A program made the position numbers and the translations under genes. Below, piece after piece: positions 16,530 to 18,609 of a stretch of 64,000 bases of DNA; the first letter of the stretch is position 1; each line of letters begins with the position of its first letter. The notes beneath the pieces are model-generated. The model saw only the letters and a list, made by a program, of their open reading frames with translations. It was not told where the DNA came from and searched no databases. The stretch is from Vampirovibrio chlorellavorus (GTDB lineage: Bacteria > Cyanobacteriota > Vampirovibrionia > Vampirovibrionales > Vampirovibrionaceae), in NCBI RefSeq assembly GCF_003149375.1, contig NZ_QFWH01000001.1, positions 419,593 through 483,592 on the forward strand, given 5' to 3'.

Positions 16530-17642
16530 GTGATTAGTCAGCAATCGGACAATCTGGACGCCAATCTCGCTCCATTTCTGGAGCTGGGCGTGGAAACGGA
16601 AGAAGGCCTGCGATCTTCGGAAGACCAGCCCCTGTCCGCTCGTCGGGCTCTGAATGGAACGGCCTATAGGATTTATCGACTCCTGCAATGGCTCATTCAA
16701 GCGCCCCTGACCGTTGACCAGCTGAATCGAAAATTTGAGCAGGATCCGGGGATCGGCAAGCCTGTTTCCAACGATTCCATCTGGTTGTATGTCAATACCC
16801 TCAAGGCGCTGGGCTGTGTTATTCGTCGGCCCAGCCCACGCAATGGTTTTGCCTATCAAATGGTCAGTCATCCGTTTGGAATGACGCTCGAGCAAAACGG
16901 GCTGGAGGTTCTGGCGCAGGCCAAGGTGGTGGCGCAACGGCATTTCTCGCCGCAGGAAATGTTGGCCCTGGACAGCCTGCTGAAGAAGATGATCGCCCAG
17001 AGTCTGTTGCAAGGCTCTGAGGATGGTAGTGAATGGATGACCCAGTTGTTTGTGCAAAGCCGCAGTCTCGACTCTCAGGAATGCCGGACGCGCATTGAGC
17101 AACTGGAGCGCTCTATTCTGGAAGAGAGTTTACTGGAAGTCACCTACGCCTCTCCCCTGAAGGGTGAAAGTGTGTTCACCTTTCTGCCTGAGAGCCTGTT
17201 TTATCGTCAGGGGGTGGTTTATGTGCGAGGCGAACGTCTGGACTATCCGGGGCCCAGCAGTTTGCGAGTGGATCGTTTACTGGGTGTGCAAACGATTCAG
17301 GATGATGACTTACGCACTCAGCTGATTGACCGTCAGCAGGTCAAGGTTGAGATTGTGCTGAAGGTTTTTGTGAGATCACCGCGCGGTTTTCAGGGGTTTG
17401 CCCTGGACCCCAATCAGGGCGTCTATCAGGAAAGCCGTTTGTGGGTGGATGGCCCGGACCCCCATTACGAGGTTCGCCTGCTGGTGCGGGATTTCTTTTA
17501 TGTGAAGCAGACGCTCTTGTCTCTGGGCTTGCCCTTTGCCATTGAGAGCCCGGATGTATTCAGGCAGGACATGAGGGAAACCCTTGATACGATGCTGGAA
17601 TTTTACAAGGCGAAAGGAAGTACAGCGGATGGCCATGGCTAG
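16530..17642 (+). CDS. WYL-domain transcriptional regulator, 1 of 2. It has an N-terminal winged HTH, a central WYL-like domain and a C-terminal extension, in a PafB/PafC/BrxR-like architecture
   Basis: It has a GTG start. The wHTH is SNDSIWLYVNTLKALGCVIRRPSPRNGFAYQM. The WYL-like core is VFTFLPESLFYRQGVVYVRGERLDYPGPSSLRVDRL. Confidence 0.6.
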   Translation: MISQQSDNLDANLAPFLELGVETEEGLRSSEDQPLSARRALNGTAYRIYRLLQWLIQAPLTVDQLNRKFEQDPGIGKPVSNDSIWLYVNTLKALGCVIRRPSPRNGFAYQMVSHPFGMTLEQNGLEVLAQAKVVAQRHFSPQEMLALDSLLKKMIAQSLLQGSEDGSEWMTQLFVQSRSLDSQECRTRIEQLERSILEESLLEVTYASPLKGESVFTFLPESLFYRQGVVYVRGERLDYPGPSSLRVDRLLGVQTIQDDDLRTQLIDRQQVKVEIVLKVFVRSPRGFQGFALDPNQGVYQESRLWVDGPDPHYEVRLLVRDFFYVKQTLLSLGLPFAIESPDVFRQDMRETLDTMLEFYKAKGSTADGHG

Positions 17643-18609
17643 TGCGCCCTCAGAGGTGTTTCAAAACATCAATATTTCAGCTTATCGAGTGCTGTTCATT
17701 CTGTTGATGCTGGTGCGCTACCGCAGCCTGAACATGGTGGAACTGAATCGCCTCCTCTACGAAAACCCCATGATCGGCCGGGGCTACAATTCGGAAACGC
17801 TCACCAAGTACATCAACACCCTGCGGGAAGTGGGCTGCCGCATCCCTCGTTCGACCAACCGAAACGATTACAGTTACGAGTTGCTCCGAAACCCTTTTCC
17901 ACTGGCCCTGGAGCCCAAAGAGCTTTCCGTGGCCCGCAGGCTGCTGGATGTGCTGGCCAGTCAGCCAGACGAGGTGCTTTATCAGGACTATCGGCGCTTG
18001 ATGGAAAATTTGTCCTGGGCGGTGGGTTGCAATACATCCCTTGGGATGGAGGAAGAGACTGGCCTGATTCCGGCTGCCCCCATGCGCGATTTGGGCTTAT
18101 GGCGGCAGCGATACAATGAATTCAGGCGATACTGCCAGGAGGCTTTTGCCCTTGAGCTTGCCTATGCCGATCCGGAGCGGGGTGTTCAGGCGCTTTCAGT
18201 GGAACCCTATGAAGTGCTGGAGCGAGAAACCGGGCTTTTTTTGCTCGGCCTGGATCGGGGCAGTCAGGAGCAGCGTTTGCTGGATCTGGATCGGATTGCC
18301 TCGGTGCGCCAGTCGCCCTCTAAAAATCGCAGGTCGCCCGTTCTGGTCACGGTGGTTTTTGCGCTGTATGGCCGTTTGGCCAAAAGTTATCGCTTATATC
18401 CGGATGAGCGGCTGGTCTACTCGTCGAACACGGAAATTCACGTAAAAACCCGGCTTGCAGAGACCAGCGGCTTGATGCTGCGTCTGCTGAAGTATGGCGC
18501 GTCCTGCCAGATACTGTCCCCGGATGGACTGCGAGACGTTATGCGCCAGCACATAGAAGGTTTGCTATCGGCGATGTCGGGAAAACCGGACCTCGGCGCG
18601 ATTATTTAG
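17629..18609 (+). CDS. WYL-domain transcriptional regulator, 2 of 2, a paralog of the upstream gene with a 14-nt overlap
   Basis: The wHTH is NSETLTKYINTLREVGCRIPRSTNRNDYSYEL. The WYL-like core is ETGLFLLGLDRGSQEQRLLDLDRIASV. AAGGAAG sits 8 nt upstream of ATG 17629. Confidence 0.6.
   Translation: MAMASAPSEVFQNINISAYRVLFILLMLVRYRSLNMVELNRLLYENPMIGRGYNSETLTKYINTLREVGCRIPRSTNRNDYSYELLRNPFPLALEPKELSVARRLLDVLASQPDEVLYQDYRRLMENLSWAVGCNTSLGMEEETGLIPAAPMRDLGLWRQRYNEFRRYCQEAFALELAYADPERGVQALSVEPYEVLERETGLFLLGLDRGSQEQRLLDLDRIASVRQSPSKNRRSPVLVTVVFALYGRLAKSYRLYPDERLVYSSNTEIHVKTRLAETSGLMLRLLKYGASCQILSPDGLRDVMRQHIEGLLSAMSGKPDLGAII

Follow-up and report, generated by a model that had tools for sequence, protein, structure and literature searches.

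Two tandem genes on the plus strand of a 64-kb stretch of the Vampirovibrio chlorellavorus genome (hereafter the window, within which all positions are counted) had been proposed to encode a pair of WYL-domain regulators resembling PafB and PafC, with reading frames overlapping by 14 nucleotides (nt). We analysed these genes, here called A and B, together with their relatives, upstream regions and neighbours (Table 1). Both were present where the original prediction had placed them, and all four of the peptides it quoted were found in their products. The overlap was likewise borne out by the positions of the B start codon (ATG at 17629) and the A stop codon (at 17642), and a Shine–Dalgarno (SD) sequence, AAGGAAG, is located 5′ of this ATG. 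In RefSeq, B starts two codons further in, which gives an overlap of 8 nt. The proteins themselves are already annotated as WYL/helix-turn-helix (HTH) proteins: RefSeq labels the product of A 'WYL domain-containing protein', and the product of B matches a V. chlorellavorus RefSeq protein at 100% identity.

Fold, paralogy and WYL asymmetry of A and B

Each protein had been predicted to contain an N-terminal winged helix-turn-helix (wHTH), a WYL-like core and a C-terminal extension, and domain searches and structure models agreed with this architecture for both. The Pfam WYL model (PF13280) scored 28.2 bits for A and 25.6 bits for B, with a gathering threshold of 21.8, and the PADLOC WYL models matched both proteins (E values of 2.8e-13 and 6.4e-11). 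For the C-terminal WCX domain (PF25583), the scores of 21.0 for A and 23.0 for B were both marginally under the threshold of 23.9, and precomputed matches to this family are present in many orthologs of A and B. An NCBIfam search gave no match for either protein, a Pfam search of the two gave no significant HTH match, and a DeoR C-terminal sensor domain was found in neither of them in Pfam or NCBIfam at E values up to 1.

AlphaFold models were built from family alignments and reached a mean predicted local distance difference test score (pLDDT) of 82.9 for A, in which residues 1–40 are disordered, and 88.7 for B. In both models a winged helix at the N-terminus is followed by a helical linker and then by a beta domain of Sm-like type, with an alpha/beta domain at the C-terminus. 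The wHTH, arranged as three helices and two beta strands (H-H-H-beta-beta), spans residues 43–113 of A and 16–84 of B with pLDDT >90. Comparison of the models with the PDB using Foldseek (E up to 1e-3) returned 31 matches for A and 32 for B, and the significant ones were without exception wHTH-WYL-WCX regulators, namely PafB/PafC, DriD, CapW, BrxR or WYL1. PafB was the top match of A (9fnd_X, E 7e-11) and PafC that of B (9fnd_Y, E 7e-14). The alignments, of 330–367 columns, covered all of PafB, PafC and DriD, and full-length structural alignments to PafBC, DriD and CapW included the C-terminal (WCX) domain. Judged by sequence, A and B are remote from every solved structure: single-sequence PDB searches with either protein gave nothing meaningful, the B profile reached PafB/PafC with an E value of 0.014, and a profile search of solved structures with A gave no WYL match and no PafBC match at E up to 10. 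Because the significant Foldseek matches all have the wHTH-WYL-WCX architecture, the assignment as WYL regulators is correct and the DeoR alternative is excluded; no different fold was found for the middle domains. With WYL, WCX and wHTH each identified in both, A and B belong to the wHTH-WYL-WCX superfamily of transcription factors.

A and B are also full-length paralogs, being 25% identical over their entire length (E 4e-22), and a profile–profile comparison of the two families gave a probability of 99.9%. We found 47 homologs of A and 91 of B, and the named organisms among them are Vampirovibrio, Melainabacteria or cyanobacterial metagenome-assembled genomes (MAGs). Species-representative genomes yielded 22 loci (loci and contigs are numbered L001 and upwards), labelled mostly as Vampirovibrio, Vampirovibrionales or Melainabacteria, with two cyanobacterial families and one Gastranaerophilales among the labels. 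In every Vampirovibrionales locus examined B directly follows A, most commonly with the 14-nt overlap and otherwise with an overlap of 1–8 nt or a short gap.

The two WYL domains have diverged in different ways. In the A family, all 47 sequences have Y231, R246 and R249, 45 have R233 and 44 have R236, and HMMER aligns the A motif with 'FRLSRI' of PafB. Among 75 sequences of the B family, 61 have D or N at the position of the first arginine of 'FRxDRI', and only 28 have R at that of the second. In PafB, R211 and R214 are essential for the binding of single-stranded DNA (ssDNA) and for the formation of a complex with RNA polymerase (RNAP), and the equivalent residues of PafC are dispensable (PMC11804915). 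Aligned in this way, A keeps the PafB-essential ligand arginines, whereas B has lost them. Mean pairwise identity in the WYL domain is 56% for A and 39% for B; the wHTH domains of the two families are equally constrained (69% and 72%).

The same pattern was found in a Gastranaerophilales MAG (L029, 3977–5841), where a very divergent tandem WYL pair of 317 and 304 amino acids (aa) with a 4-nt overlap lies beside dnaA. Its first gene is A-type (…YLRLDRI…) with the ligand arginines kept, and its second, of B type (…FKIKDIK…), carries the RLAKSY motif specific to B and has lost the ligand arginines. Since the A-type gene precedes the B-type gene here as well, the A/B duplication appears, on the basis of this single genome, to predate the split between Vampirovibrionales and Gastranaerophilales.

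The complementary arginine pattern, the strict coupling of the genes and the asymmetry of the box upstream of A (see below) speak for an obligate heterodimer of A and B with A as its ligand sensor. By analogy with actinobacterial PafBC, such a heterodimer is the most likely state of the pair. Most characterised WYL regulators are homodimeric (DriD, CapW and BrxR), and A and B could likewise be independent homodimers with separate targets, adjacent merely through tandem duplication. We consider this very unlikely, given that the two genes strictly co-occur and are translationally coupled across a whole bacterial order, that their divergence is complementary, with ligand arginines in A only, that the A-type then B-type order recurs in Gastranaerophilales, and that a single, asymmetric type of box is conserved.

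The proposed heterodimer resembles PafBC, the mycobacterial and actinobacterial activator of the DNA-damage response, in comprising two paralogous wHTH-WYL-WCX proteins encoded by tandem genes, of which A is structurally closest to PafB and B to PafC. In both systems the critical WYL arginines are those of the first gene product, the second set being dispensable in PafC and lost in B, and DNA-repair and recombination genes are the predicted targets here as they are for PafBC. As an analogy, the description as PafB/PafC-like is thus apt, with regard to both the tandem paralogs and the top structural matches. It fails as a statement of orthology: A is most closely related to B and B to A, with PafB/PafC only at the profile E value given above, and the A/B duplication is therefore independent of that of PafBC. 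Moreover, PafBC is found in Actinobacteria at the Pup-proteasome locus, whereas A and B are found in Vampirovibrionia beside pth, a PRK-like kinase gene, prfB and aroQ. DriD, the SOS-independent DNA-damage activator of Caulobacter crescentus, shares the wHTH-WYL-WCX fold (E about 1e-10 to 1e-13), but it is a homodimer encoded by one gene, its two WYL domains are equivalent in binding ssDNA and its target sequence is different, whereas A/B always comprises two genes. The three-domain fold is also that of CapW and BrxR, which repress CBASS and BREX, and CapW senses ssDNA (PMC11662680); in contrast to A/B, which has no defence context, both of these repressors are homodimeric and encoded beside defence systems. 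On the best reading, A/B is an independently evolved PafBC-like heterodimeric regulator and not a PafBC ortholog.

A conserved box upstream of gene A and its recurrence

Of the 26 loci whose regions 5′ of gene A we compared, 18 contain the 9-mer AAAACCGAA, and the 14-mer AAAACCGAAyATTT was exact in at least 18 loci, down to an A identity of ~35–40%, while the rest of the intergenic DNA around it is unalignable at these divergences. The full element reads TTGG-AAAACCGAAyATTT-N5-TTTACA, followed after 17 nt (occasionally 18) by CAnnAT. Some 20 genomes have this arrangement of box and CAnnAT in front of A. In the window, the 25-bp box AAAACCGAACATTTATCGGTTTACA starts 98 nt 5′ of the GTG of A; in the promoter the box lies at about −54 to −30. 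It is retained at L021, where the PRK-like gene is missing, and is therefore part of the A promoter. Upstream palindromes had been suggested as the key to a regulon, and the site proved to be conserved but its palindromy did not: only about half of the loci have an intact AAACCGA-N7-TCGGTTT, and the others have CCCTTTAC or ACCTTTAC (CCCTTT or ACCTTT) as the right arm and an exact left half. Because the right arm degenerates in this way, we rejected a perfect palindrome as the operator and regard the site as an asymmetric one, which is what two different wHTHs would be expected to read. A further feature of this region is the hairpin-forming sequence GCCGAACCGGTTTTGTTCAATTCGGGG (16492–16524, plus strand), which lies close 5′ of the GTG, within the leader predicted for A. 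The box core CCGAAC recurs in this sequence, which is conserved in the genus Vampirovibrio only (L008–L010).

The window contains just two exact copies of the 14-mer, where we estimate a chance expectation of ~0.002 exact matches, and none of the shuffled sequences gave two matches to the 25-mer pattern. The second copy, AAAACCGAACATTTAACCCTTTGGC, is oriented toward comM, 91 nt 5′ of its ATG, with the same geometry as at A (TTTGGC, 17 nt, CACAAT). The box was also found upstream of comM in L001 (at 92 nt), L003 (89 nt) and L150 (81 nt), as well as on the metagenome contig L124, whose ComM is 84% identical, making five genomes including the window. In L003, one and the same C-to-A change, AAAAACGAAGATTT, is present in the boxes of the A and comM promoters, a within-genome covariation that is expected if one factor reads both sites. 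Searching ~350 kb of related loci revealed no further exact copies of the 14-mer. A metagenome scan gave, among the matches listed (at least 120), mostly AT-rich chance matches, together with six gene-A promoters, one comM promoter (L124) and one site at dprA/smf. The latter box is immediately upstream of dprA/smf on a Vampirovibrio sp. contig, and the gene product matches Pfam DNA_processg_A (E 2.5e-75) and falls in a 90%-identity cluster named Smf (Vampirovibrio sp.). As regulon members we rejected L090 (an argininosuccinate-synthase-like gene, 336 nt away), L102 and L068/L121 (EF-P). A box-like match at 32034 falls within coding sequence, among flagellar genes, and was taken as chance. The sequence AAATCCGACGATTT (27430–27443, plus strand), a weaker match to the box with two mismatches, is found 88 nt 5′ of the comM box, in the intergenic region that they share, and may be a second site or a chance match.

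The regulated cargo of the pair had been described as not obvious, and the recurrence of the box now provides comM and dprA as concrete candidates. ComM is a branch-migration helicase of recombination and DprA loads RecA on ssDNA; both proteins act on ssDNA in recombination and transformation, and their genes are usually put under competence regulators. The predicted sites at the A/B operon itself, at comM and at dprA point to a small DNA-damage or DNA-uptake regulon. In promoters controlled by PafBC, a −26 element is coupled to a canonical −10 and there is no −35 (PMC8635444), whereas the box described here includes a −35-like hexamer; the apparently small A/B regulon also differs from the ~150 genes controlled by PafBC. 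The arrangement is closer to that of DriD, whose sites overlap the −35, with constant spacing to the −10, in promoters that have a poor −35 (PMC13004042). The box described here likewise lies over the −35 at a fixed distance from the −10, and the predicted regulon, like that of DriD, is small and contains DNA-metabolism genes.

Table 1. Positions of the A/B pair, the boxes and the neighbouring genes in the window
Feature	Position	Strand	Description
Gene A	16530–17642	+	370 aa, GTG start; WP_303673013.1; wHTH-WYL-WCX regulator; WYL keeps Y231, R233, R236, R246 and R249
Gene B	17629–18609	+	326 aa from ATG 17629; paralog of A, wHTH-WYL-WCX; WYL ligand arginines degenerate; 14-nt overlap with A
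Conserved 25-bp box AAAACCGAACATTTATCGGTTTACA	16432–16456	+	Candidate A/B site; 3′ end is the −35-like TTTACA
−10-like hexamer CACCAT (CAnnAT)	16474–16479	+	17 nt after TTTACA; spacing conserved across loci
Second box copy AAAACCGAACATTTAACCCTTTGGC	27518–27542	+	sppA–comM intergenic region; also in L001, L003, L124 and L150
comM −10-like CACAAT	27560–27565	+	17 nt after TTTGGC
comM/yifB	27609–29204	+	Mg-chelatase-like AAA+ ATPase, 531 aa; predicted regulon member
Gene for 92-aa protein	18637–18915	−	Convergent with B; NPF motifs; C-terminal MFLGYRDxxPxxGGxRLFILY
Uridine-kinase-like P-loop kinase (PRK family)	15437–16300	−	Divergent from the WYL operon; N-terminal extension of ~65 aa
MTP18-like gene	14359–15339	−	326 aa; Pro/Gln/His-rich N-terminus; weak match (E 0.0098), under cut-off

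Genomic neighbourhood of the pair

The typical gene order is tlyA(−), pth(+), PRK-like kinase(−), A(+), B(+), small gene(−), prfB(+) and aroQ(+). The outer context differs in L005 (ABC transporter and riboflavin genes) and L152 (rpoB/C upstream), and the block PRK(−), A, B, small(−) is retained in both, from which we conclude that the kinase, A, B and the small gene travel together. The pair occurs without the kinase in L004, L021 and L023. In the window, the PRK-family kinase and a weak MTP18-like gene lie upstream of the pair on the minus strand, as had been proposed, and it is the former that accompanies the pair, being co-conserved with it in most Vampirovibrionales. This protein is uridine/cytidine-kinase-like, with a score of 76.6 bits against NCBIfam udk that is far under the cut-off of 180. 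The MTP18-like gene sits between pth and the kinase gene in the genus Vampirovibrio only (L008–L011) and is missing from other loci that retain the pair; we therefore rejected it as a module partner.

Downstream of B, the original prediction had pointed to a long and unusually empty gap. The length was confirmed (524 nt, from 18610 to the prfB GTG at 19134), but the gap is not empty, as the gene for a 92-aa protein occupies 279 nt of it. This gene, annotated in RefSeq as encoding a hypothetical protein, was found by tblastn in almost all related loci (E 1e-12 to 1e-56) and is called as a gene in those assemblies, its stop codon often being a few nt from that of B or overlapping it. The conserved part of the protein reads NPF…(D/E)S.EF…YG.NKPL…MFLGY(R/H)D..P..GG.RLFILY, and the 57 representative clusters of the family are all short. 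An exhaustive profile search with it returned, apart from a single spurious repeat protein, only short members of its own family, with no known domain and no functional clue. An Rfam search of positions 14000–21000 (E up to 1) gave one sub-threshold chance match, inside prfB, and the gap between the pair and prfB thus holds no known RNA.

Among more than 25 loci, the syntenic neighbours of the pair are housekeeping genes (gcv, tlyA, pth, prfB, aroQ and mnmG), and no BREX, CBASS or other defence genes were seen beside it. This bears on the possibility, raised in the original prediction, that the pair is the switch of an anti-phage defence island of the BrxR/CapW type. The matches of both proteins to PADLOC WYL models would fit such a role, but the gene neighbourhood lends it no support and, being one of housekeeping genes, argues that the pair is not a regulator of this kind; we regard a defence switch as extremely unlikely.

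Several other features of the window were observed. The prfB gene (release factor 2; 19134–20268, plus strand) contains the classical programmed +1 frameshift site CTT TGA C, with the TGA at 19206–19208 and an SD-like AGGGGG directly 5′. Its frame 0 runs from the GTG at 19134 to the CTT at 19203–19205 and the main frame resumes at 19207; the list of open reading frames gives prfB as 19186–20268 only. In related genomes mnmG and comM come straight after aroQ, whereas the window has extra genes at 20816–25666: these encode a 490-aa protein on the minus strand with no Pfam match, an acidic, Pro/Ser-rich low-complexity protein of 898 aa (22471–25167) and a 153-aa XRE-type HTH protein (25205–25666). 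The mnmG–comM–sppA block is inverted in the window relative to related genomes. Finally, a flagellar-like cluster at 31480–33663 on the plus strand, read by eye from the translations, includes a coiled-coil FliJ-like protein and a rod/hook-like protein.

Proposed mode of action and its meaning

The fold, the paralogy, the conservation of the pair, the box with its recurrence and the asymmetry of the WYL residues are direct observations, and their best overall explanation is a PafBC-like A/B heterodimer that responds to ssDNA and activates its own operon, comM and dprA via the box, which we hold with slightly more belief than doubt. A and B would be co-translated from one operon and assemble as a heterodimer. 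From the position of the box upstream of A, this dimer is predicted to be the factor that binds it: it would occupy ~25 bp of asymmetric sequence (AAAACCGAAyATTT-N5-TTTACA) abutting and overlapping the −35, with a constant spacing of 17 nt to a weak −10 (CAnnAT), at three promoters, its own and those of comM/yifB and dprA. By analogy with PafBC, DriD and CapW the ligand is probably ssDNA, with the intact WYL domain of A as its predicted binding site. B may serve mainly as the partner that contacts DNA or RNAP, because its WYL domain has lost the ligand residues. We favour activation over repression in view of the promoter geometry, that is, the same spacing between box and −10 at three unrelated genes, combined with weak −35 and −10 elements. 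At comM, the −35 is poor (TTTGGC, TTCTTG or TTTTTG) and the −10 is the non-canonical CAnnAT, a combination typical of activator-dependent promoters.

Several points weigh against this explanation. The first is that a site over the −35 is also compatible with repression, as with CapW and BrxR. The same complex could use the same box to occlude the −35-like hexamer at the A/B, comM and dprA promoters, and ssDNA or another ligand could then release it. Both CapW and BrxR are wHTH-WYL-WCX repressors that also match our models, and CapW offers a precedent for a repressor that senses ssDNA. The distance from the box to the −10 is the same at three different genes, however, which together with the poor −35 and non-canonical −10 at comM is typical of promoters that depend on an activator, and the nearest structural matches are the activators PafBC and DriD. 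We therefore think repression unlikely, though with an appreciable probability.

The proposed activation by A/B through the box is further weakened by the purely positional nature of the association between the two and by the most divergent relatives (L025–L027), in which the box is not recognisable. The dprA link comes from one contig, and the pattern used in the metagenome scan (box plus −10) was derived from gene-A promoters. The box could be read by another regulator or be a sigma-associated element, the WYL pair being just one of its targets and having its own targets elsewhere. Nearly every pair-bearing genome has the box 5′ of the pair, however, and its fading in the most divergent A/B relatives also argues for A/B as the reader. 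Autoregulation is usual in the WYL regulator family, and the asymmetry of the box suits two different wHTHs. We judge another reader of the box to be decidedly unlikely.

With regard to the ssDNA proposed as the ligand of A/B, WYL domains can sense other molecules, such as cyclic di-GMP (c-di-GMP; PMC11880434), and the conserved adjacent nucleoside-kinase-like gene could hint at a nucleotide. A nucleotide-type small molecule might be made or consumed by the uridine-kinase-like enzyme and sensed by the pair, with the 92-aa protein as a modulator; both genes remain beside the pair in L005 and L152, where the outer synteny is lost. The three loci that have the pair without the kinase are difficult to reconcile with this, as are predicted targets whose products handle ssDNA and the retention in A of the arginines that bind ssDNA in PafB. 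A nucleotide ligand accordingly has a low probability in our view, and ssDNA is preferred.

An ssDNA-responsive A/B activator would fit the emerging picture of WYL regulators as a widespread class of ssDNA sensors in charge of DNA-damage responses that do not depend on LexA. Among solved structures and the literature searched, we found no heterodimeric WYL regulators other than PafBC, and the locus suggests that the heterodimeric design arose again among the non-photosynthetic relatives of cyanobacteria, a distant lineage. The literature searched also held no description of a class-wide heterodimeric design, of the degenerate second sensor, of the operator or of the link to comM and dprA, and a search combining Vampirovibrio and WYL gave irrelevant papers only. 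We put forward tentatively, and regard as unlikely, the broader idea of a heterodimeric WYL sensor with one ligand-sensing subunit throughout Vampirovibrionia, a master switch of the transformation and recombination genes comM and dprA that would be triggered by incoming or damaged ssDNA and modulated by the kinase and the 92-aa NPF-motif protein. To our knowledge, no genetics exists for Vampirovibrionia, and the three promoters represent a first candidate regulon for this class that is open to in vitro testing. The predictions to be tested are a 25-bp operator, three target promoters and specific ligand-binding arginines, and they would connect the WYL family with comM and dprA. If true, the broader idea of such a master switch would mean that a predatory relative of cyanobacteria has a WYL-controlled competence or ssDNA-response regulon, and that the PafBC design had a second origin.

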